Assembly (NCBI RefSeq): GCF_055900595.2
Contig: NZ_CM148325.1
Direction: 5' to 3' (one strand)
DNA: 64,000 nucleotides
This document shows, piece by piece, positions 10,121 to 63,896 of this stretch (position 1 is the first letter of the stretch; every line of letters begins with the position of its first letter). Below the pieces are notes generated by a model. That model saw nothing but the letters and a program-made list of their open reading frames with translations, had not been told where the DNA came from and made no database searches. Position numbers and translations under genes: made by a program.

Positions 10121-10238
10121 TGTTCATGCCGGATGCGGCGTGAACGCCTTATCCGGCCTACAAGATCGTGCAAATTCAATATATTGCATGAGCCATGTAG
10201 GCCTGATAAGCGTAGAGCATCAGGCAGTTTTGCGTTTG
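10121..10238. repeat. REP/BIME (RIP-like) element: two inverted REP palindromes flanking an AT-rich spacer
   Basis: GCCGGATGCGGCGTGAACGCCTTATCCGGCCTACA ... GTAGGCCTGATAAGCGTAGAGCATCAGGCA; near-identical copy at 41201..41318. Confidence 0.85.
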
Positions 10239-11743: not shown

Positions 11744-14130
<2,387 letters not shown>

Positions 14131-14494: not shown

Positions 14495-15070
14495 ATGAGC
14501 GAGCAGTTAACGGACCAGGTCCTGGTTGAACGGGTCCAGAAGGGAGATCAGAAAGCCTTTAACTTACTGGTAGTGCGCTATCAGCATAAAGTGGCGAGTC
14601 TGGTTTCCCGCTATGTGCCGTCGGGTGATGTTCCCGATGTGGTACAAGAAGCTTTTATTAAAGCCTATCGTGCGCTGGATTCGTTCCGGGGAGATAGCGC
14701 TTTTTATACATGGCTGTATCGGATTGCTGTAAATACAGCGAAAAATTACCTGGTTGCTCAGGGACGCCGTCCACCTTCCAGTGATGTGGATGCCATTGAA
14801 GCTGAAAACTTCGAAAGTGGCGGCGCGTTGAAAGAAATTTCGAACCCTGAGAACTTAATGTTGTCAGAAGAACTGAGACAGATAGTTTTCCGAACTATTG
14901 AGTCCCTCCCGGAAGATTTACGCATGGCAATAACCTTGCGGGAGCTGGATGGCCTGAGCTATGAAGAGATAGCCGCTATCATGGATTGTCCGGTAGGTAC
15001 GGTGCGTTCACGTATCTTCCGAGCGAGGGAAGCTATTGATAACAAAGTTCAACCGCTTATCAGGCGTTGA
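14495..15070 (+). CDS. rpoE: RNA polymerase sigma factor sigmaE (sigma-24, ECF family)
   Basis: 191 aa; sequence recognised (MSEQLTDQVLVERVQKGDQKAFNLLVVRYQHKV...). Confidence 0.97.
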   Translation: MSEQLTDQVLVERVQKGDQKAFNLLVVRYQHKVASLVSRYVPSGDVPDVVQEAFIKAYRALDSFRGDSAFYTWLYRIAVNTAKNYLVAQGRRPPSSDVDAIEAENFESGGALKEISNPENLMLSEELRQIVFRTIESLPEDLRMAITLRELDGLSYEEIAAIMDCPVGTVRSRIFRAREAIDNKVQPLIRR

Positions 15071-15753: not shown

Positions 15754-16709
15754 TGAAGCAACTTTGGTTTGCCATGTCATTAGTGACAGGTAGCCTGTTA
15801 TTCTCTGCTAACGCCTCGGCCACTCCCGCGTCCGGGGCGTTATTACAGCAGATGAACCTGGCCAGTCAGTCACTGAATTACGAGCTGTCATTCATCAGCA
15901 TCAATAAACAGGGTGTTGAGTCTCTGCGTTATCGACATGCACGCCTCGATAACCGTCCTCTTGCACAATTGTTGCAAATGGATGGCCCGCGCCGGGAAGT
16001 GGTACAGCGCGGCAATGAAATCAGCTACTTTGAACCGGGCCTTGAACCGTTCACGCTTAATGGCGATTACATTGTTGATTCTCTGCCATCGCTCATCTAT
16101 ACCGATTTCAAACGCCTTTCTCCTTACTACGACTTTATCTCCGTGGGACGCACGCGTATTGCTGATCGTCTTTGCGAAGTCATTCGCGTGGTGGCCCGTG
16201 ATGGCACACGCTACAGCTACATCGTGTGGATGGACACCGAATCGAAATTACCGATGCGGGTTGATCTCCTTGATCGCGATGGTGAAACGCTGGAACAATT
16301 TCGCGTGATTGCTTTTAACGTTAATCAGGATATCAGCAGCAGTATGCAGACGCTGGCGAAAGCAAATCTGCCGCCGCTGCTTTCTGTTCCTGTAGGTGAA
16401 AAAGCTAAATTCAGCTGGACGCCAACCTGGTTGCCACAGGGGTTTAGTGAAGTTTCCAGCAGCCGACGTCCGTTACCGACGATGGACAACATGCCTATCG
16501 AATCACGTCTCTATTCCGACGGATTATTCAGCTTCTCGGTAAACGTTAACCGCGCTACGCCATCGAGCACCGATCAGATGTTGCGCACCGGACGCAGAAC
16601 CGTCAGTACAAGCGTACGTGATAACGCCGAAATCACCATTGTCGGCGAACTGCCGCCGCAAACGGCGAAACGCATTGCCGAGAATATTAAGTTCGGGGCA
16701 GCGCAATGA
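15753..16709 (+). CDS. rseB: SigmaE regulatory protein RseB (periplasmic)
   Basis: 318 aa with signal peptide; operon position. Confidence 0.95.
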   Translation: MKQLWFAMSLVTGSLLFSANASATPASGALLQQMNLASQSLNYELSFISINKQGVESLRYRHARLDNRPLAQLLQMDGPRREVVQRGNEISYFEPGLEPFTLNGDYIVDSLPSLIYTDFKRLSPYYDFISVGRTRIADRLCEVIRVVARDGTRYSYIVWMDTESKLPMRVDLLDRDGETLEQFRVIAFNVNQDISSSMQTLAKANLPPLLSVPVGEKAKFSWTPTWLPQGFSEVSSSRRPLPTMDNMPIESRLYSDGLFSFSVNVNRATPSSTDQMLRTGRRTVSTSVRDNAEITIVGELPPQTAKRIAENIKFGAAQ

Positions 16710-17185
16710 TCAAAGAGTGGGCTACGGTCGTCTCCTGGCAAAACGGGCAGGCGCTGGTCAGTTGTGATGTTAAAGCCTCATGCAGCAGCTGTGCTTCCCG
16801 TGTCGGTTGCGGTAGCCGCGTGCTGAATAAACTTGGCCCACAAACCACGCATACCATTGTCGTACCCTGTGATGAACCGTTAGTACCGGGGCAAAAAGTG
16901 GAATTAGGAATCACCGAAGGCAGCCTGCTTAGCTCCGCATTACTGGTTTATATGTCGCCGTTGGTGGGATTATTCCTCATCGCTTCGTTATTTCAGCTAC
17001 TCTTTGCTTCAGATCTTGCAGCATTATGCGGTGCGATTCTCGGCGGCGTTGGTGGATTCCTGATTGCACGCAGCTACTCGCGAAAGTTTGCTGCCCGGGC
17101 AGAATGGCAACCGATCATCTTAAGCGTGGCATTGCCGCCAGGCCTTGTGCGATTTGAAACATCTTCGGAAGACGCGAGCCAGTGA
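16706..17185 (+). CDS. rseC: SigmaE regulatory protein RseC
   Basis: 159 aa membrane protein; 4-bp overlap with rseB. Confidence 0.92.
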   Translation: MIKEWATVVSWQNGQALVSCDVKASCSSCASRVGCGSRVLNKLGPQTTHTIVVPCDEPLVPGQKVELGITEGSLLSSALLVYMSPLVGLFLIASLFQLLFASDLAALCGAILGGVGGFLIARSYSRKFAARAEWQPIILSVALPPGLVRFETSSEDASQ

Positions 17186-17382
17186 TTTCACTGGCTTTGT
17201 TGCATTTTGCATAACAAATGCGAGGACGTTTCCAGATACCACAATCCATACCGTATGAACATTTCCTCGCCTCAATGTTGTAGTGTAGAATGCGGCGTTT
17301 CTATTAATACAGACGTTAAGCTCAGAACAGCGACTTCTAAAAGCCTGGTTAACCGGGCATTAAGGCACAATAATCATACTTT

Positions 17383-19182
<1,800 letters not shown>

Positions 19183-20220: not shown

Positions 20221-20414
20221 ATTTATGAGATAAATCCCCCGTGGCTAACGACATCCCCCGTCGTTGTGTATAGAATATTCCCCCGAAGTTTAAGGTTGGC
20301 ACCTCCAGGTTGCCACGGCACACGAAACAGCGTTGGTCCCCATATACCGGTAAACTGAAACTGCAGCGAAGCAGTTAGCAGAGCCATGTATATCAGGTCT
20401 GTTTCGTGTGCTGA

Positions 20415-22027
<1,613 letters not shown>

Positions 22028-22158
22028 TTAGCATACTCTATGACTTTCGAGGTGCAGGAAGGCGGCAAGACCGTGAATCCCTGGGAGCTTACTAAAGTAA
22101 GTGACCAGGGTGAACGGGTGCAGCCAAGGCACCTGCAACTTGAAAGGCGACGAGTATG

Positions 22159-22887
22159 ATGGAAGGCTGGCAGCGCGCATTCGTATTGCATAGTCGCCCG
22201 TGGAGCGAAACCAGCCTGATGCTGGACGTCTTCACGGAGGAATCGGGTCGCGTGCGTCTGGTTGCCAAAGGCGCACGCTCTAAACGCTCTACTCTGAAAG
22301 GTGCATTACAGCCTTTCACCCCTCTCTTGCTACGTTTTGGCGGGCGTGGCGAAGTCAAAACGCTGCGCAGTGCCGAAGCTGTCTCGCTGGCGCTGCCATT
22401 AAGCGGTATCACCCTTTACAGTGGTTTGTACATTAACGAACTTCTCTCCCGCGTGCTGGAATACGAGACGCGCTTCTCTGAACTCTTTTTCGATTACTTG
22501 CACTGCATTCAGTCTCTTGCAGGTGCCACTGGTACGCCAGAACCCGCGCTGCGCCGCTTTGAACTGGCACTGCTCGGTCATCTGGGTTATGGCGTCAATT
22601 TTACCCATTGTGCGGGTAGCGGCGAGCCGGTAGATGACACCATGACGTATCGTTATCGCGAAGAAAAAGGGTTTATCGCAAGCGTCGTTATCGACAATAA
22701 AACGTTCACTGGAAGGCAGTTAAAAGCGTTAAACGCGCGGGAATTTCCTGACGCAGACACACTACGCGCCGCGAAACGCTTTACCCGTATGGCGCTTAAG
22801 CCGTATCTTGGCGGTAAACCATTAAAGAGCAGGGAACTGTTCCGGCAGTTTATGCCTAAGCGAACGGTGAAAACACATTATGAATGA
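22159..22887 (+). CDS. recO: DNA repair protein RecO
   Basis: 242 aa from second Met; operon position. Confidence 0.93.
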
Positions 22888-22898
22888 TGAGGATTGTC

Positions 22899-23630
22899 AT
22901 GGCTGAATTACTGTTAGGCGTCAACATTGACCATATTGCAACGCTGCGTAACGCACGTGGTACTGCTTACCCGGATCCGGTGCAGGCGGCGTTTATTGCT
23001 GAGCAGGCGGGGGCGGATGGCATTACCGTGCATCTACGTGAAGATCGTCGCCACATTACCGACCGCGACGTGCGCATCCTGCGTCAGACGCTGGATACCC
23101 GCATGAATCTGGAGATGGCGGTGACCGAAGAGATGCTGGCGATCGCCGTTGAAACAAAGCCGCATTTTTGCTGCCTGGTACCGGAAAAGCGTCAGGAAGT
23201 AACAACCGAAGGCGGCCTGGACGTCGCTGGACAGCGTGAAAAAATGCGCGATGCCTGCAAACGTCTGGCGGAGGCCGGGATCCTGGTTTCTCTGTTTATC
23301 GACGCCGATGAAGAGCAGATCAAAGCTGCGGCAGAGGTTGGCGCACCGTTTATCGAGATCCACACCGGTTGCTATGCTGATGCCAAAACTGACGCCGAAC
23401 AGGCGCAAGAGCTGGCGCGTATCGCCAAAGCCGCGGCCTTTGCCGCAAGTCTCGGTCTGAAAGTTAACGCTGGTCACGGTCTGACCTATCACAACGTGAA
23501 AGCCATTGCCGCCATTCCTGAGATGCACGAACTGAATATCGGTCATGCCATTATTGGTCGTGCAGTGATGACCGGACTGAAAGATGCGGTGGCAGAAATG
23601 AAGCGTTTGATGCTGGAAGCGCGTGGCTAA
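22899..23630 (+). CDS. pdxJ: Pyridoxine 5'-phosphate synthase PdxJ
   Basis: 243 aa from Met at 22899 ([21 protein letters not shown]...). Confidence 0.95.
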
Positions 23631-24010: not shown

Positions 24011-24033
24011 AATAATACCGTTCTCTTTAAAAA

Positions 24034-24070
24034 GTAAAACCCCCGAACTGGTAAGGAACGGGGGTTTTAC
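24034..24070. terminator. Rho-independent terminator after acpS
   Basis: Hairpin AAAACCCCCG-n-CGGGGGTTTT followed by T-rich tract. Confidence 0.75.
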
Positions 24071-24429
24071 TTTACAACTTTAATTTTGTGCAGCACACGA
24101 TTCCAACAAAAATGATTATGGATCAATTTAGTTATCCTGTACAAGCAACTTGCAATCTTTAGCATAAAAACTCGAGCCTTTACGAAGAAATCGATATTGA
24201 TGAAAAGATTAACGTGACCGCTTTTTGATAAGTACATTAGAATCGGCGTCGTTATTGGATATTTTGCTGTGTTCTACGCCATGCCACTGAATTCCCCCAT
24301 TGAAACGAGTGGTGTCGTCAAAGCTCTGGTGTGGAGTGCGGCACTCGATTCCAATAACTCGCACGTTCAGTTTTGGGGAGATGTAAGGGCTAATCTGAAC
24401 GGCTGCATTCCTTGTTTAAGGAAAAACGA

Positions 24430-25000: not shown

Positions 25001-25129
25001 TTATACGCGCATTCTTTACTCAAACCAGTTTTTTCACCAACGCTTCACTATGACGAATACGTTCTGGTGCCAGCTCCAGATCCTGCTGAATCAGCGCAAT
25101 GAACAGTAAATCCGGGTAATGACTCCAAC

Positions 25130-25633
25130 TTATTGATAGTGTTTTATGTTCAGATAATGCCCGATGACTTTGTCATGCAGCTCCACCGATTTTGAGAACG
25201 ACAGCGACTTCCGTCCCAGCCGTGCCAGGTGCTGCCTCAGATTCAGGTTATGCCGCTCAATTCGCTGCGTATATCGCTTGCTGATTACGTGCAGCTTTCC
25301 CTTCAGGCGGGATTCATACAGCGGCCAGCCATCCGTCATCCATATCACCACGTCAAAGGGTGACAGCAGGCTCATAAGACGCCCCAGCGTCGCCATAGTG
25401 CGTTCACCGAATACGTGCGCAACAACCGTCTTCCGGAGCCTGTCATACGCGTAAAACAGCCAGCGCTGGCGCGATTTAGCCCCGACATAGCCCCACTGTT
25501 CGTCCATTTCCGCGCAGACGATGACGTCACTGCCCGGCTGTATGCGCGAGGTTACCGACTGCGGCCTGAGTTTTTTAAGTGACGTAAAATCGTGTTGAGG
25601 CCAACGCCCATAATGCGGGCAGTTGCCCGGCAT
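25130..25633 (-). CDS. insB: IS1 InsB (C-terminal part of InsAB' transposase, made by -1 frameshift)
   Basis: 167-aa ORF overlapping insA in the -1 frame; typical IS1 organisation. Confidence 0.95.
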
Positions 25634-25827
25634 CCAACGCCATTCATGGCCATATCAATGATTTTCTGGTGCGTACCGGGTTGAGAAGCGGTGTAAGTGA
25701 ACTGCAGTTGCCATGTTTTACGGCAGTGAGAGCAGAGATAGCGCTGATGTCCGGCGGTGCTTTTGCCGTTACGCACCACCCCGTCAGTAGCTGAACAGGA
25801 GGGACAGCTGATAGAAACAGAAGCCAC
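25552..25827 (-). CDS. insA: IS1 InsA (transposition inhibitor / N-terminal part of InsAB' transposase)
   Basis: 91 aa, [37 protein letters not shown]... zinc-finger motif. Confidence 0.97.
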
Positions 25828-25877
25828 TGGAGCACCTCAAAAACACCATCATACACTAAATCAGTAAGTTGGCAGCA

Positions 25878-26645
25878 TCACCGTAAATCCGTTAACATTC
25901 CCTGAGCGTGACAAGCAGAGATTGCAGCACTGTTTGTCGCTTGTTCTTCGGCAATGGTATACAGGCAATGAGAAGCACGCTGTTGCAGGGCATTGGGAGT
26001 AAAGCCGGTAATCGCCAGCACTTTTCCGCCCACTCGCAGCATCTCATCTGCCGCCAGGTTTAACTCGCGTCGTACACCGGTGTAGGAAATGGCTAATAAC
26101 AGATCGTCAGGGGACGACGCCTGTACTGTAGCGAGTAGCGCATGCATATCGCGCACTGCGGCAGCATTGAAGCCAATCTTCATCAGCTTCCAGGCAAAGT
26201 TTTGCGCCACCAGACCCGAAGCGCCAATACCGGTCAGAATTATCCGCCGTGCAGAGCGCAACATTGTTACGCATTCATGCAGTTTCTCTTCACTATTAAC
26301 ATTTAGCGTTGCGTACATAGCGGCAGTATTTTCTTTAATCAGTTTTTCGCCGACCAGCCGTAACGGATCATCACCGCGGATTTGGTTATGAATGGGCACG
26401 GAGGGAGATTCCGGCTGGCTTGCCAGCGCTTCACTCAACGCCAACTTAAGTGCCGGAAAACCTTTATAGCCGAGTTTTTGCGCGAACTTCACGACGCTGG
26501 ACTGACTGACTCCGGCTTCGTTGGCCAGTTGCTGAGAGCTTAAATGGCGCGCCGTATCAGGTTGTAGCAGCAGATAGTCCGCCAGTTTTTTATCACTCTG
26601 GGCAAGCCCCTGGTAACGCTGACGGATACGAAGTAAGCCGTTCAT
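25878..26645 (-). pseudogene. yfhH: RpiR/MurR-family regulator YfhH (HTH + SIS domain), 3' end interrupted by IS1: native last 28 codons replaced by a single Arg codon plus stop inside the IS1 end
   Basis: Reading frame runs from Met at 26645 into the IS1 terminus; the displaced native 3' remnant (25020..25105) lies on the other side of IS1 in the same frame. Confidence 0.8.
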
Positions 26646-27501: not shown

Positions 27502-29603
<2,102 letters not shown>

Positions 29604-33966: not shown

Positions 33967-34055
33967 CAATGGCTGATTTACAGCCAAATAGCGAAGAAGT
34001 CATTAACCCATCAAAACAACGTATAATCAGTACGTTACCAAACTATTTTATTTAT

Positions 34056-34071
34056 TGGCACAGTTACTGCA
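34056..34071 (+). promoter_or_regulatory. Sigma54 promoter of glmY (TGGCAC-N5-CTGCA)
   Basis: -24 GG / -12 GC elements with canonical spacing immediately upstream of the glmY 5' end. Confidence 0.8.
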
Positions 34072-34082
34072 TAATAGTCATC

Positions 34083-34268
34083 AGTGGCTCATTCACCGAC
34101 TTATGTCAGCCCCTTCGGGACGTGCTACATAAAATTCGAATGACGCACAACAAGGTGCCTGCCGTCCAACTTCTGATATCAGCTTAGCTATATCAACCCT
34201 CGGGCGAAACGTCGAGTTAGGCACCGCCTTATTCCATAACAAAGCCGGGTTATTCCCGGCTTTGTTGT
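34083..34268 (+). ncRNA. glmY: Small RNA GlmY (controls GlmZ/glmS via RapZ)
   Basis: Sequence recognised (AGUGGCUCAUUCACCGACUUAUGUCAGCCCCUUCGGGAC...); ends in terminator AAAGCCGGG-n-CCCGGCUUUGUUGU; lies between purL and glrK. Confidence 0.85.
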
Positions 34269-34324
34269 ATCTGAACTTCCCCTCGGTTAGCATCAGGCTA
34301 TTCGCGTCTGACGAGAGTAACACC

Positions 34325-35752
34325 TTGAAACGCTGGCCCGTTTTTCCCCGCTCATTACGACAACTGGTAATGCTGGCATTTTTGCTGATTCTGCTACCCC
34401 TGTTGGTGCTGGCATGGCAAGCCTGGCAAAGCCTGAATGCGCTTAGCGATCAGGCGGCGCTGGTTAACCGCACTACGCTTATTGATGCCCGGCGCAGTGA
34501 AGCGATGACCAACGCGGCGCTGGAGATGGAGCGTAGCTACCGTCAGTATTGCGTGCTGGACGACCCAACTCTGGCGAAGGTTTATCAAAGCCAGCGCAAG
34601 CGTTACAGCGAAATGCTCGATGCCCACGCAGGCGTACTGCCGGACGATAAACTTTACCAGGCATTGCGTCAGGATTTGAACAATCTGGCTCAACTTCAGT
34701 GTAACAACAGCGGTCCCGATGCTGCTGCCGCCGCGCGTCTGGAAGCCTTTGCCAGTGCCAATACCGAAATGGTACAGGCCACGCGCACAGTGGTGTTCTC
34801 TCGCGGACAGCAGCTTCAGCGTGAAATCGCCGAACGTGGGCAATATTTTGGTTGGCAATCGCTGGTGTTATTTCTGGTAAGTCTGGTGATGGTACTGCTC
34901 TTCACGCGGATGATTATCGGCCCGGTGAAAAATATTGAACGGATGATCAACCGTCTGGGGGAAGGGCGTTCTCTGGGCAATAGCGTTTCGTTCAGTGGAC
35001 CGAGTGAGTTACGCTCGGTTGGGCAACGTATTCTCTGGTTAAGCGAACGCCTGTCATGGCTGGAATCCCAGCGCCATCAATTTTTAAGACATTTATCTCA
35101 TGAATTAAAAACGCCGCTGGCGAGTATGCGCGAGGGCACTGAATTACTGGCTGACCAGGTTGTCGGGCCGCTTACGCCCGAGCAAAAAGAGGTGGTGAGC
35201 ATCCTTGATAGCAGCAGCCGCAATTTGCAAAAACTGATCGAACAACTGCTTGATTACAACCGTAAACAGGCGGACGGCGCGGTGGAACTGGAGAGTGTAG
35301 AGCTGGCACCGCTGGTGGAAATGGTGGTTTCTGCTCATAGCCTGCCCGCACGGGCTAAAATGATGCATACCGACGTCGATCTCAAAGCAACTGTTTGCCT
35401 GGCGGAGCCAATGCTGCTGATGAGCGTACTGGATAATCTTTACTCCAATGCGGTGCACTACGGGGCTGAATCCGGTAACATTTGCCTTCGCAGCAGTTTA
35501 CATGGCGCGCGGGTTTATATTGATGTCATCAATACAGGCACACCCATTCCGCAAGAGGAACGCGCCATGATCTTCGAACCCTTTTTTCAGGGAAGCCACC
35601 AGCGAAAAGGGGCGGTGAAGGGCAGCGGTCTGGGATTAAGCATTGCCAGGGATTGTATTCGCCGTATGCAGGGGGAACTGTATCTGGTCGACGAGAGCGG
35701 GCAAGAGGTTTGCTTCCGCATTGAATTACCGTCGTCGAAAAACACGAAATAA
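34325..35752 (+). CDS. glrK: Sensor histidine kinase GlrK (QseE/YfhK)
   Basis: 475 aa if started at TTG 34325 (MKRWPVFPRSL...); H-box HELKTPL; HATPase domain. Confidence 0.88.
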   Translation: MKRWPVFPRSLRQLVMLAFLLILLPLLVLAWQAWQSLNALSDQAALVNRTTLIDARRSEAMTNAALEMERSYRQYCVLDDPTLAKVYQSQRKRYSEMLDAHAGVLPDDKLYQALRQDLNNLAQLQCNNSGPDAAAAARLEAFASANTEMVQATRTVVFSRGQQLQREIAERGQYFGWQSLVLFLVSLVMVLLFTRMIIGPVKNIERMINRLGEGRSLGNSVSFSGPSELRSVGQRILWLSERLSWLESQRHQFLRHLSHELKTPLASMREGTELLADQVVGPLTPEQKEVVSILDSSSRNLQKLIEQLLDYNRKQADGAVELESVELAPLVEMVVSAHSLPARAKMMHTDVDLKATVCLAEPMLLMSVLDNLYSNAVHYGAESGNICLRSSLHGARVYIDVINTGTPIPQEERAMIFEPFFQGSHQRKGAVKGSGLGLSIARDCIRRMQGELYLVDESGQEVCFRIELPSSKNTK

Positions 35753-35916
35753 TGTTAAGAGCCTATCCCATCAGGCTATTTTATTTGCCAGTTTGGCCCC
35801 GTGCAGTGCGCGAAATCATTACGTACTACGTGTACGCTCCGGTTTCTCCGCGCTGTCCATGTCCAAACTGCCTGCAACAATTACGCCCACTGGGGTAGGT
35901 TTTAAGTCTGGTGAAT

Positions 35917-36630
35917 ATGCGACACATTTTTCAACGATTATTGCCCCGACGGCTATGGCTGGCAGGGCTGCCATGTCTGGCATTGCTGGGTTGCGTGCAG
36001 AGTCACAATAAGCCAGCTATTGATACGCCAGCAGAAGAAAAAATTCCGGTTTATCAACTGGCTGACTATCTTTCTACTGAATGTAGCGACATCTGGGCAC
36101 TGCAAGGTAAGTCAACCGAAACCAATCCGCTTTACTGGCTGCGGGCGATGGATTGTGCTGATCGTTTAATGCCTGCGCAGTCGCGGCAGCAAGCCCGCCA
36201 ATATGACGACGGCAGCTGGCAAAATACCTTCAAACAAGGGATTTTGCTCGCCGACGCCAAAATTACGCCTTATGAGCGCCGCCAGCTGGTCGCGCGCATT
36301 GATGCGTTAAGTACCGAGATCCCGGCACAGGTTCGCCCACTGTATCAACTCTGGCGCGACGGTCAGGCGCTGCAACTGCAACTGGCGGAAGAGCGCCAAC
36401 GCTACAGCAAACTCCAGCAGTCCAGCGACAGCGAACTGGATACTTTGCGCCAGCAACATCACGTTCTACAGCAGCAACTGGAGCTCACCACCCGCAAGCT
36501 GGAAAATCTGACCGATATTGAACGTCAGCTCTCTACCCGCAAACCGGCTGGCAATTTCTCGCCGGATACGCCGCACGAGAGTGAAAAGCCCGCGCCATCT
36601 ACCCATGAGGTCACTCCTGATGAGCCATAA
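35917..36630 (+). CDS. qseG: Lipoprotein QseG (YfhG/GlrP), accessory to the GlrK-GlrR system
   Basis: 237 aa; signal peptide with lipobox LLGC; Gln-rich coiled-coil region; 11-bp overlap with glrR. Confidence 0.85.
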   Translation: MRHIFQRLLPRRLWLAGLPCLALLGCVQSHNKPAIDTPAEEKIPVYQLADYLSTECSDIWALQGKSTETNPLYWLRAMDCADRLMPAQSRQQARQYDDGSWQNTFKQGILLADAKITPYERRQLVARIDALSTEIPAQVRPLYQLWRDGQALQLQLAEERQRYSKLQQSSDSELDTLRQQHHVLQQQLELTTRKLENLTDIERQLSTRKPAGNFSPDTPHESEKPAPSTHEVTPDEP

Positions 36631-37954
36631 ACCTGCGCATTTATTACTGGTCGATGACGATCCAGGATTGCTGAAACTGCTTGGTCTGCGTCTGACCAGC
36701 GAAGGTTATAGCGTGGTTACGGCGGAAAGTGGAGCTGAAGGATTGCGGATACTGAATCGTGAAAAAGTAGATTTAGTCATCAGCGATCTGCGGATGGATG
36801 AAATGGATGGTATGCAACTGTTTGCCGAAATCCAGAAAGTGCAGCCAGGTATGCCAGTAATCATCCTCACCGCGCATGGTTCCATTCCCGATGCCGTTGC
36901 CGCGACACAGCAGGGCGTGTTCAGTTTCCTCACCAAGCCTGTCGATAAAGACGCGCTGTATCAGGCAATTGACGATGCGCTGGAGCAATCAGCCCCCACT
37001 ACCGACGAACGCTGGCGCGAGGCGATTGTCACCCGCAGCCCGCTGATGCTGCGTTTGCTGGAACAGGCGAGGCTGGTGGCGCAGTCAGATGTTAGCGTTT
37101 TGATTAACGGTCAGAGCGGTACCGGGAAAGAGATTTTTGCCCAGGCGATCCACAACGCCAGCCCGCGCAACAGCAAACCGTTTATTGCTATTAACTGTGG
37201 CGCATTGCCCGAGCAATTGCTGGAGTCAGAGCTGTTTGGTCATGCGCGTGGCGCGTTTACTGGCGCTGTCAGCAATCGTGAAGGTTTATTCCAGGCGGCG
37301 GAAGGCGGTACGCTGTTTCTCGATGAGATTGGCGACATGCCCGCACCGTTGCAGGTCAAACTGCTACGCGTGTTGCAGGAGCGCAAAGTGCGCCCGCTGG
37401 GCAGCAACCGCGATATTGATATCGACGTGCGGATTATTTCCGCCACTCACCGTGACCTGCCAAAGGCGATGGCGCGCGGGGAATTCCGTGAAGATCTCTA
37501 CTATCGCCTCAACGTTGTCAGTCTGAAAATTCCGGCATTGGCGGAGCGCACAGAAGACATTCCGCTACTGGCAAACCACTTATTGCGCCAGGCGGCAGAG
37601 CGACATAAACCGTTTGTCCGCGCATTCTCCACCGATGCAATGAAACGACTGATGACCGCGAGCTGGCCGGGTAATGTGCGCCAGTTGGTCAACGTGATTG
37701 AACAGTGCGTGGCGCTAACATCATCTCCGGTGATTAGTGATGCGTTAGTCGAGCAGGCGCTGGAGGGCGAAAATACGGCTCTGCCAACCTTTGTTGAGGC
37801 GCGTAATCAGTTTGAACTCAACTACTTGCGTAAGCTGCTGCAAATCACCAAAGGGAATGTCACCCACGCGGCGAGAATGGCGGGGCGCAACCGGACAGAA
37901 TTTTATAAACTGCTTTCCCGACACGAGCTGGATGCAAACGATTTCAAGGAATGA
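36620..37954 (+). CDS. glrR: Sigma54-dependent response regulator GlrR (QseF/YfhA)
   Basis: 444 aa; receiver domain, AAA+ sigma54-interaction domain ([15 protein letters not shown]), C-terminal HTH. Confidence 0.93.
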
Positions 37955-37978
37955 ATCGGCGTAATGTGTTACGTTTAG

Positions 37979-38353
<375 letters not shown>

Positions 38354-38365
38354 ACCGCGTCAGGG

Positions 38366-38390
38366 TTGCCGGATGTCTCCATCCGGCAAC
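38366..38390. terminator. Shared hairpin terminator between convergent glnB and hmp
   Basis: GTTGCCGGATG-n-CATCCGGCAAC inverted repeat. Confidence 0.65.
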
Positions 38391-38396
38391 CTCAAA

Positions 38397-39587
38397 TCAC
38401 AGCACTTTATGCGGGCCAAAGCATTCGTAATGAATGTTTTCCTGTTTCACACCCAGGTCCACTAACTGTTTCGCGGCAAACTGCATGAAGCCAACCGGGC
38501 CGCAGAGATAGAACTGCATTGTCGGATCGCTGAACGCACCTTCCAGTTTGCTCAAATCCATCAGACCTTCGCTATCAAACTGACCTTTAGCGCGATCGGC
38601 TTCGCTTGGCTGACGATACCAGGTGTGCGCGGTAAAGCGCGGCAGTGCTTGCCCCAGTTCCTTAACTTCATCGGCAAAGGCGTGAACATCGCCATTTTCT
38701 GCCGCATGGAACCAGTTCACTTGTGCGGTGTGGCCTGCTTTTGCCAGCGTGTCGAGCATTGCCAGCATTGGCGTCTGGCCGACACCGGCAGAGATTAACG
38801 TCACTGGTGTGTCATCTGCGACAGCCATAAAGAAATCACCTGCCGGAGCGACCAGTTTCACGACATCGCCAACATTGGCGTGATTGTGCAGCCAGTTGGA
38901 TACCTGCCCGCCATCTTCGCGTTTCACCGCAATACGATAGCCTTTGCCATCCGGTTTGCGAGTCAAAGAGTACTGACGAATTTCCTGATGCGGGAAACCT
39001 TCCGGCTTCAGCCAGACGCCGAGATATTGCCCCGGACGGTATTCTGCCACTGCGCCACCGTCGACCGGCTCCAGTTCGAAGCTGGTGATAAGCGCGCTGC
39101 GCGGTGTTTTAGCCACAATGCGGAAATCGCGAGTACCTTCCCAGCCACCGGCTTTGCTGGCGTTTTCGTTATAGATTTCCGCCTCGCGATTGATAAATAC
39201 ATTAGCCAGTACGCCATAGGCTTTACCCCACGCGTCCAGCACTTCCTGGCCCGGGCTGAACATTTCGTCCAGCGTCGCCAACAGGTGTTCGCCGACAATG
39301 TTGTACTGTTCCGGTTTGATCTGGAAACTGGTGTGCTTCTGGGCGATTTTTTCTACCGCTGGCAGCAGCGCAGGCAGGTTTTCAATATTACTGGCGTAGG
39401 CGGCAATAGCGTTAAACAGGGCTTCACGTTGATCGCCATTACGCTGGTTACTCATGTTAAAAATTTCTTTGAGTTCTGGGTTATGAGTAAACATACGGTC
39501 GTAGAAATGGGCGGTTAACTTTGGCCCTGTTTCCACCAGTAAAGGGATGGTGGCTTTTACTGTAGCGATGGTTTGAGCGTCAAGCAT
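38397..39587 (-). CDS. hmp: Flavohemoglobin (nitric oxide dioxygenase)
   Basis: 396 aa from Met at 39587; N-terminal globin domain, C-terminal FAD/NAD-binding reductase. Confidence 0.95.
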
Positions 39588-53441: not shown

Positions 53442-54254
53442 TTAAAGATCCAGCCCAGCCGCTACGTGGCGAATGCCGCGAATCGCTAAACCCGCATCAG
53501 CGTTGATCATCACACCGCTTAATGCGCGATTATTGCGCCGCGATGCCAACATCACATACGGACCCGTAAAATCCGCCGGTTGCGGGAAAAATTGCAGCGG
53601 TAATATGGCGGCAATTTTCTCCGGCGTCAGAGACTGCATTATCGAGGTTTCACTTTGCCCGAGCGCCTGTGGGCCGCGTAGATCGCTGGCCATACCGCAT
53701 GGCCCAACGCCATTCACCCGTACTTTAGGTGCCAGTTCATAGGCCAGTTGGCGAATAAGTCCGGTTGCGGCATGTTTACTGGCGGTGTACAGCGGGCCAC
53801 CGCCGCCGGGATACCAGGCAGCATTGGACAGGGTGAAAATCATGCTGCCTTCACTGGCGATTAACGCCGGAGCGCAGGCTTTTGCGCCCAGCAGGTAACC
53901 GAGTACGTTGACGTTAAACAGCTCGTGGAAGCCGGTTTCGAGCGTCTCTGCGGGAGTATTAACCAGTGAGGCATTGTGATCCCAGATGCCCGCATTGCCG
54001 ATAAAACAATCCAGCTTGCCAGAACGAGTCAGGATCTGATCGACCGCGCGTTGATAATCGGCATAGCAGGTCACGTTACCTTCCACCGCCAGAATATGTT
54101 CGCCAAATCGCTGACGCAGACTGGCGACTTTTGCCGCCGACAGTTCCAGCGTGGCAACCTGCGCACCTTCTTCGATAAATCGCTCGACCAGTGCCAGTCC
54201 TAATCCCGATCCGCCACCAGTAATAAAGATGGACTCGTTATGCAGATCGCTCAT
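53442..54254 (-). CDS. hcaB: 2,3-dihydroxy-2,3-dihydrophenylpropionate dehydrogenase (SDR family)
   Basis: 270 aa; SDR motif [11 protein letters not shown] and YxxxK. Confidence 0.92.
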
Positions 54255-54571: not shown

Positions 54572-56483
<1,912 letters not shown>

Positions 56484-57633: not shown

Positions 57634-58773
57634 ATGGTTTTGCAATCCACGCGCTGGTTGGCGCTCGGTTATTTCACATACTTTTTTAGTTACGGCATTT
57701 TTCTACCTTTCTGGAGCGTCTGGCTTAAGGGGATTGGCTTAACGCCAGAAACTATCGGCCTGTTATTGGGGGCTGGTCTGGTTGCCCGTTTTCTCGGGAG
57801 TTTGATCATCGCGCCCCGCGTTAGCGATCCTTCCCGCCTGATTTCCGCCTTGCGCGTACTGGCACTGCTGACACTTCTCTTTGCTGTCGCCTTCTGGGCG
57901 GGGGCGCATGTAGCGTGGTTGATGGTGGTGATGATTGGCTTTAACCTCTTTTTCTCACCGCTGGTACCGTTGACCGATGCACTGGCGAATACATGGCAAA
58001 AACAGTTCCCGCTTGATTACGGCAAAGTGCGACTGTGGGGCTCGGTGGCGTTTGTCATTGGCTCGGCGCTGACAGGCAAACTGGTCAGTATGTTGGATTA
58101 TCGGGTGATCCTCGCGCTGTTGACGTTGGGCGTGGCGTCCATGCTGCTCGGATTTCTCATTCGTCCAACGATTCAGCCACAAGGGGCTAGCCGTCAGCAG
58201 GAGAGCACGGGAGGGCCAGCCTGGCTGACACTGGTCCGCCAGAACTGGCGCTTTCTGGCCTGCGTTTGTTTATTACAGGGAGCGCATGCAGCCTATTACG
58301 GTTTTAGCGCTATTTACTGGCAGGCAGCTGGGTATTCTGCTTCAGCGGTGGGCTATTTGTGGTCGCTGGGCGTGGTGGCAGAAGTCATTATTTTTGCGCT
58401 GAGTAATAAACTTTTCCGCCGTTGTAGTGCACGCGATATGCTGCTGATCTCGGCAATTAGCGGCGTAATGCGCTGGGGAATTATGGGAGCAACGACGGCG
58501 TTGCCGTGGTTGATAGTAGTGCAAATTCTGCATTGCGGCACCTTCACGGTCTGCCACCTGGCGGCCATGCGTTATATTGCCGCCCGCCAGGGTAGCGAAG
58601 TCATTCGTTTGCAGGCGGTTTACTCTGCCGTTGCAATGGGCGGTAGTATCGCCATCATGACCGTCTTCGCCGGTTTCCTGTATCAATATCTGGGCCACGG
58701 CGTGTTCTGGGTGATGGCGCTGGTGGCGCTTCCGGCAATGTTCTTGCGCCCGAAAGTTGTTCCCTCATGCTGA
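57634..58773 (+). CDS. hcaT: MFS transporter HcaT (putative 3-phenylpropionate transporter)
   Basis: 379 aa, 12-TM-type hydrophobic profile; synteny. Confidence 0.88.
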   Translation: MVLQSTRWLALGYFTYFFSYGIFLPFWSVWLKGIGLTPETIGLLLGAGLVARFLGSLIIAPRVSDPSRLISALRVLALLTLLFAVAFWAGAHVAWLMVVMIGFNLFFSPLVPLTDALANTWQKQFPLDYGKVRLWGSVAFVIGSALTGKLVSMLDYRVILALLTLGVASMLLGFLIRPTIQPQGASRQQESTGGPAWLTLVRQNWRFLACVCLLQGAHAAYYGFSAIYWQAAGYSASAVGYLWSLGVVAEVIIFALSNKLFRRCSARDMLLISAISGVMRWGIMGATTALPWLIVVQILHCGTFTVCHLAAMRYIAARQGSEVIRLQAVYSAVAMGGSIAIMTVFAGFLYQYLGHGVFWVMALVALPAMFLRPKVVPSC

Positions 58774-63655: not shown

Positions 63656-63896
63656 TTTAACCGTCCTGTTTCGTGTTGCATCTGCGTTGACTGTACATAC
63701 TCACTCCGGTCACTTACTTATGTAAGCTCCCGGAGATTCGTAAGTTTGTCAACTTGCTGAAACCCGAAACAGTTAGGTTAAAGATAACAAGATATTAGAA
63801 TCAGGCCGGGGCGTCTCGCGCTCCGTAAACACGGTCGTACATCCAGCCGGTAGCCTGGTTCCTTGCATTGAGTGATGTACGGAGTTTATAGAGCAA

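Follow-up and report, generated by a model that had tools for sequence, protein, structure and literature searches.

Overlapping gene junctions are a textbook feature of operons. In E. coli, 24% of the unidirectional gene pairs (707 of 2987) lie within distances of -8 to +6 nt (Huber et al. 2023, PMC10666635), and the genome-wide commonness of these distances falls in the order -4 > -1 > -8 (PMC10666635). Four of the five native E. coli ATGA pairs tested were strictly coupled by termination-reinitiation (Huber et al. 2019, PMC6728339); bioBF, also a native ATGA pair, was uncoupled (PMC6728339). Since bioBF is overlapped yet uncoupled, overlap alone is no proof of coupling. As regards the mechanism, the RNA-unfolding and 30S/70S scanning models of coupling are still debated (review PMC12548453). 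Among individual gene pairs, rnc/era has been described as coupled by reinitiation (Era review, PMC10582724), and the coupling of nifL and nifA is thought to hold the NifL:NifA ratio (PMC12548453). An operon comprising a kinase, a PF13942 lipoprotein and a sigma-54 response regulator has also been described (PMC6075780); its lipoprotein, QseG, is limiting for the activity of QseE/QseF (PMC6075780).

The operon of the latter kind considered here lies in a stretch of 64,000 nt of contig NZ_CM148325.1 (assembly GCF_055900595.2), analysed as a whole and referred to below as the window. The original prediction read the overlapping stop and start codons of the window as a sign of tight translational coupling and singled out the junction of qseG and glrR. 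The overlaps are real, ordinary and already known features of known operons: supplement file 3 of PMC10666635 tabulates the K-12 pairs discussed here with equal distances, including the -11 of qseG/glrR.

Sequence Background and Gene Mapping

From pssA to iscS, the whole window is collinear with 2.66-2.72 Mb of K-12 MG1655 and runs in reverse orientation to it. Mapping the coding sequences curated for K-12 onto the window gave the starts and stops of each junction; all of them are intact, with start and stop positions unchanged and a per-gene identity to K-12 MG1655 of 92-100%. The PGAP annotation of an identical strain agrees with the curated K-12 starts, so the -4/-1 junctions discussed below probably involve true starts rather than ORF extensions. 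The 4.5 kb around qseG/glrR (34000-38500) were found in 5425 of 5426 complete E. coli genomes, and eight RefSeq E. coli genomes match this segment with 100% identity. The allele of the strain is a minority one, as judged from 34000-38500 and 36450-36800: an identity of at least 99% was recorded in only 8 of the 5425 E. coli genomes, and the 5' region of glrR is about 94% identical to that of most E. coli genomes. The 4.5-kb query had a median of two matching places per E. coli genome.

The genes of the QseE/QseG/QseF (GlrK/GlrR) three-component system, i.e., glrK, qseG and glrR, were all mapped and are intact, their operon lying downstream of glmY (GlmY Rfam match, 34083-34230). On the plus strand, qseG (35917-36630) encodes a lipoprotein of 237 aa (Pfam PF13942, E 9e-81) and glrR/qseF (36620-37954) a sigma-54-dependent response regulator of 444 aa; both were mapped from K-12. 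In Escherichia, 164 nt separate glrK from qseG (35753-35916). In the Salmonella, Citrobacter, Klebsiella, Enterobacter and Intestinirhabdus loci (L087-L091), the putative qseG starts lie between a 4-nt overlap with the end of qseE and 23 nt after it, and these calls carry an N-terminal extension (MNLSLVSM...).

Several further elements of the window were recorded. The Rfam matches, all to elements expected here, include rncO (20285-20499), OhsC (24031-24107), the iscRS stability element (63785-63894) and ES036/CssrF (10162-10204); no tRNA genes were found in the window. An IS1 copy at 25115-25882 (region 25106-25891), flanked by 9-bp direct repeats GTAAATCCG as target duplications, breaks the 3' end of yfhH and contains an InsB-like ORF on the minus strand (25130-25633; Pfam DDE_Tnp_IS1, 2e-78). 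Neither K-12 nor NZ_CM128605.1, a strain identical in other respects, has this insertion.

The qseG/glrR Junction

The 11-bp overlap claimed for qseG and glrR is borne out by the inspected sequence. It occupies positions 36620-36630 of the plus strand (ATGAGCCATAA), the ATG of glrR being located at 36620-36622 and the TAA of qseG at 36628-36630; the K-12 and PGAP annotations place it at the same coordinates, and its letters are identical in K-12. A GAGG motif resembling a Shine-Dalgarno (SD) sequence is found at 36607-36610 (plus strand), 9 nt before the ATG and inside the qseG codons for Glu-Val, so that the SD motif of the downstream gene is harbored by the upstream one; its best duplex with the anti-SD amounts to -6.8 kcal/mol. 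Editing the 3' end of qseG, e.g., by tags or deletions, hence means editing the ribosome-binding site and the first four codons of glrR. With its distance of -11, the junction is outside the -4/-1 class and 3 nt beyond the reinitiation range of -8 to +10 (PMC10666635), into which the relatives with ATGA do fall.

No significant RNA structure was predicted at the junction (z-score +0.88), and the single hairpin seen there is weak (6 bp) and absent as a conserved feature in relatives. A ribosome-binding site sequestered in a stable structure, as implied by coupling through RNA unfolding, was accordingly not found at qseG/glrR. In addition, the starts lying in an overlap did not differ in predicted structure from the rest of the window's starts (p 0.26 and 0.33). 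An unfolding mechanism is neither backed nor ruled out by the local RNA structure predicted. Scans of 35600-36750 revealed no plus-strand promoter-like site inside qseG, and terminator-like matches were at chance level.

As another possible start of glrR, the in-frame upstream ATG at 36605 was considered and rejected: no SD-like motif precedes it, the frame is not kept in Citrobacter and Salmonella, and its use would merely enlarge the overlap with qseG. The next in-frame start downstream of the glrR ATG would remove the first strand of the receiver domain.

Other Overlapping Junctions of the Window

Among the 36 co-directional adjacent pairs of the window, 10 overlap, 8 of them by exactly -4 or -1. 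At the published rate of 24%, 8.5 such pairs are expected (binomial P(>=8) = 0.64), i.e., there is no enrichment. The -4 (NTGA) type is represented on the plus strand by the ATGA of rseD/rpoE (14495-14498), rseB/rseC (16706-16709) and rnc/era (21122-21125), and on the minus strand by hcaE/hcaF (55086-55089), preceded by a strong AGGAGGTGA motif, and hcaC/hcaB (54251-54254), preceded by GGAGG. The -1 (TRATG) type comprises rseA/rseB (TAATG, 15753) and pdxJ/acpS (TAATG, 23630) on the plus strand and hcaF/hcaC (TGATG, 54571) on the minus strand. The PMC10666635 supplement lists rseA/rseB (K-12 distance -1), rseB/rseC, pdxJ/acpS and the three hca junctions, among others; rseD/rpoE, absent from the earlier list, was read from the sequence and the K-12 and PGAP annotations. 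None of the 1-nt junctions (rseB, acpS, hcaC) has an SD-like motif upstream (0/3, a small sample), the best duplexes ranging from -3.2 to -4.2 kcal/mol. Most of the 4-nt junctions, also a small sample, do have one, with duplexes of up to -14.1 kcal/mol (hcaF).

The qseG/glrR overlap had been taken for the largest one. That rank belongs to pssL/pssA on the minus strand, where the gene for the small protein PssL lies upstream of pssA and shares 17 nt with it (1765-1781; K-12 annotation, mapped with 100% identity). This junction has the largest same-strand overlap in the window and was likewise absent from the earlier list.

The list of 4-bp and 1-bp overlaps put forward earlier agrees with the inspected sequence for rnc-era, pdxJ-acpS, rseA-B-C and hcaE-F-C-B but fails at recO/pdxJ. 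According to the K-12 and PGAP annotations, the stop codon of recO (22885-22887, plus strand) is followed by an 11-nt spacer with GAGGA and then by the ATG of pdxJ (22899-22901); the distance of +11, given in the PMC10666635 supplement as well, places this pair outside the -4/-1 class. To overlap recO, pdxJ would have to begin at an in-frame ATG further upstream, at 22884 or 22887. E. coli PdxJ has been crystallised with chains of 243 and 242 aa, and a Pfam search with the extended PdxJ did not tell the start codons apart. The claimed overlap of recO and pdxJ hangs on an unsupported start codon, and a revised start, named in the original prediction as what would undo it, does so here, since the curated pdxJ ATG at 22899 removes the overlap.

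Other observations concern the vicinity of these junctions. An Rfam match to AsrC, an antisense RNA of the rseC mRNA (16670-17501, minus strand, 502 bits), covers the ATGA of rseB/rseC together with the whole of rseC; an antisense transcript there could affect the junction if it is coupled. The era-recO spacer (22028-22158) is 131 nt long vs. 11 nt in K-12, the extra DNA being an imperfect palindrome containing GTGAATCCCTGGGAGCTTACTAAAGTAAGTGACCAGGGTGAACG and folding at -63.7 kcal/mol (z -8.6). By its likeness to the consensus, this palindrome is putatively ERIC/IRU-like. Convergent genes also overlap, namely yfiC(trmN)/nadB by 16 nt (12466-12481), tadA/mltF by 4 nt (28047-28050) and hcaT/csiE by 9 nt (58765-58773); such tail-to-tail overlaps are irrelevant to coupling.

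The qseG/glrR Junction in Relatives

The junction was compared across 12 Enterobacterales loci, recovered in part by a search with the QseG protein and by look-ups of contigs with exactly matching proteins; this is a small sample, judged by parsimony without a tree. A scan of genome contigs with GlrR gave three Enterobacterales loci among the 80 matches listed, the others being paralogues or distant relatives. In all 12 loci, qseG and glrR overlap (by 1, 4, 11 or 14 nt), and a spacer occurs in none. The 11-nt form is present in the window, K-12, Escherichia sp. E4930 and one Escherichia-like contig, so that within this sample it is confined to Escherichia. The ATGA form is present in Salmonella enterica, Citrobacter werkmanii, C. 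koseri, Photorhabdus, Arsenophonus and one further enterobacterium, the 14-nt form in Klebsiella oxytoca and Enterobacter, and an overlap of 1 or 4 nt in Intestinirhabdus. At the equivalent site, 11 of the 12 loci have an SD-like motif ahead of glrR.

The two sides of the junction differ in their conservation. The N-terminus of GlrR, M-x-(x)- followed by a 13-residue stretch, is conserved across genera from Escherichia to Arsenophonus. The C-terminal tail of QseG varies in length and sequence. In many genera, QseG ends in ...(D/E)(E/D)V(T/K)P, encoded by GAGGT plus CC-ATG-A; thus, the common ending ...DEVTP codes for the ribosome-binding site of glrR. Since the 5' end of glrR is conserved, a stop is available in both alternative frames, and qseG ends where its frame meets one. 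The 11- and 14-nt forms share one homologous stop, the TAA from the glrR codons CAT/CGT-AAA; GlrR of Escherichia is one codon shorter (444 vs. 445 aa).

The ATGA is the common and probably the ancestral state of qseG/glrR in the Enterobacterales, and the 11-nt overlap would be a form specific to Escherichia, as judged by parsimony on 12 loci without a tree. Because its variable C-terminal tail is in the other frame there, the qseG of Escherichia would read through the ATGA and stop at the TAA within CAT AAA (glrR codons 3-4). We infer this direction of evolutionary change from the distribution of the forms. The comparative picture is a small addition and reveals no new kind of thing.

Outside the Enterobacterales (L008-L024), a lipoprotein-like ORF of 170-270 codons separates a GlrK-like kinase from a GlrR-like regulator (e.g., at 2456-2977 in L008, 2399-2941 in L016 and 2414-2971 in L014). 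Such loci occur, among others, in Amphritea, Pseudoalteromonas, Janthinobacterium, Rhodocyclaceae and a Nitrospirota MAG. What the proteins encoded by these middle ORFs have in common with QseG is limited to a lipobox Cys at the N-terminus and, in the C-terminal part, a motif resembling LENLTDIERQL (22 columns in hhalign, 94.9%); Pfam PF13942 stayed below threshold. In many cases the middle ORF runs up to or into the start of the regulator: among the matches listed, ATGA was seen in 3 of 11 such distant loci, and in several the two were 2 to 11 nt or further apart.

Interpretation of the Overlaps

Taken together, the overlaps are very probably of the ordinary stop/start type, with termination-reinitiation operating at the -4/-1 junctions and a mixed initiation, rather than strict coupling, at glrR. 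At the -4/-1 junctions, the ribosome ending the upstream gene would sit on the downstream AUG and could restart there, aided by an SD motif within the upstream gene, where present. The output of the downstream gene is probably tied to the upstream gene's translation, and termination-reinitiation is the best-supported model for these junctions, to which the mechanism is assigned by class. The -1 junctions devoid of an SD-like motif fit such a dependence on the upstream ribosome. For glrR, a mix of fresh initiation at its own GAGG and short-range reinitiation, with the ribosome moving about 8 nt backwards, seems plausible.

The bearing of published data on glrR is indirect, the literature search having returned no coupling experiment on qseG/glrR. 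The cell was reported to contain 11 copies of QseG vs. 36 copies of QseF/GlrR (cited by Goepel et al., PMC6075780), a ratio which might also stem from differences in protein stability and not synthesis. A qseG deletion was fully complemented in trans (Goepel et al., PMC6075780); because the complementation is full, GlrR must still be made in the deletion, where a scar peptide ending at the native qseG stop could nevertheless keep the coupling. These data argue against a strict dependence of GlrR on the translation of qseG. Overall, the tight translational coupling that the overlaps were taken to imply finds support for the -4/-1 class in the four coupled pairs out of five (PMC6728339) and for rnc/era in the earlier description (PMC10582724), but it overreaches at qseG/glrR in view of the distance of -11, the gene's own GAGG, the copy numbers, the trans complementation and the uncoupled bioBF.

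A somewhat doubtful alternative is that compaction and stop-codon drift have produced the overlaps as a neutral side effect, the downstream genes starting independently. The 5' codons of glrR give a stop within 14 nt in any frame (the TGA in ATGA, the TAA in CGT/CAT-AAA), and therefore an overlap can arise without selection for coupling. The unconserved overlap length, the variable QseG tail, the SD-like motif before glrR in nearly all loci and the spacers of several distant loci among the matches listed are all in line with this explanation. It is harder to reconcile with the lack of a spacer in the 12 Enterobacterales loci, a stop upstream of the ATG being easy to evolve, and with the three -1 junctions (rseB, acpS, hcaC), which lack an SD-like motif and so need some help from upstream; the sharp maxima of the genome-wide distances at -4 and -1 also argue for selection.

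It is unlikely, if conceivable, that selection has preserved the close-packed junction throughout the Enterobacterales, and perhaps also in related modules of kinase, lipoprotein and regulator in beta- and gamma-proteobacteria, so that synthesis of the regulator is partly gated by translation of the limiting lipoprotein. If true, the last residues of QseG and its stop would be dictated by the ribosome-binding site and first codons of glrR, and the 11-nt form of Escherichia would represent a frame-shifted derivative with a weakened link.

Even less credence can be given to obligatory tight coupling at every junction listed, under which GlrR would be made only by ribosomes just off QseG, at a fixed ratio. 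The overlap in all 12 loci sampled, the usual coupling of ATGA pairs and the documented coupling of nifLA, a pair of a sensor partner and a sigma-54 activator (review PMC12548453), speak in its favor, and linked synthesis would make sense with QseG limiting for QseE/QseF. Against it stand the reported abundance of GlrR, about three times that of QseG, and the complementation of the qseG deletion in trans, along with the SD motif of glrR itself and the position of the junction outside the predictive range of -8 to +10. Moreover, no structure masking the ribosome-binding site was predicted (z +0.88), the overlapped starts do not exceed the others in predicted structure (p 0.26, 0.33), and bioBF exemplifies an ATGA overlap without coupling.

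Finally, that the overlaps are annotation artefacts of misplaced start codons is hardly credible: this does hold for recO/pdxJ (overlapped only with ATG 22884 or 22887), such errors do occur (the gene caller's ATA start in C. koseri) and glrR does have the in-frame ATG at 36605, but the N-terminus of GlrR is conserved from Escherichia to Arsenophonus, the ATG at 36605 lacks an SD-like motif and would enlarge the overlap, the next downstream start cuts the receiver domain, and the remaining starts agree between curated K-12 and PGAP.

An overlap should not be taken to prove coupling, and at qseG/glrR less than anywhere else. The importance of these junctions beyond careful annotation is small, their distances being already tabulated for K-12.

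Comparison with Described Systems

The rseD-rpoE pair of the window has its ATGA (14495-14498) 100% identical to that of K-12, where rseD is annotated as the rpoE leader peptide. Leader-peptide coupling of rseD-rpoE was reportedly described by Yakhnin and co-workers in 2017 (J Bacteriol). The closest general counterparts are the -4 (NTGA) and -1 (TRATG) coupled pairs (PMC6728339, PMC10666635): eight junctions of the window display exactly these motifs in known operons, and several of the pairs encode subunits of one complex (HcaE/HcaF/HcaC, RseA/RseB). The experimentally tested set contains none of the window's pairs (PMC6728339, PMC10666635); hca, rnc and rse go unmentioned in PMC6728339. For its part, qseG/glrR is marked "no complex" in PMC10666635, its -11 being outside the "predictive" range of -8 to +10.

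The likeness is complete for rnc-era of gamma-proteobacteria (PMC10582724): the same gene pair with the ATGA junction is found at 21122-21125, and the junction itself shows no difference. What differs lies downstream, namely the 131-nt era-recO spacer with its ERIC-like palindrome in place of the 11 nt of K-12.

In its gene order, qseG/glrR resembles nifL-nifA of Klebsiella pneumoniae (Govantes et al. 1998, cited in PMC12548453), where the gene of a signalling partner is likewise located directly upstream of, and close-packed with, the gene of a sigma-54-dependent activator. The partners themselves differ: NifL binds NifA directly in the cytoplasm, whereas QseG is a periplasm-facing outer-membrane lipoprotein, which acts on the kinase QseE and not on GlrR.
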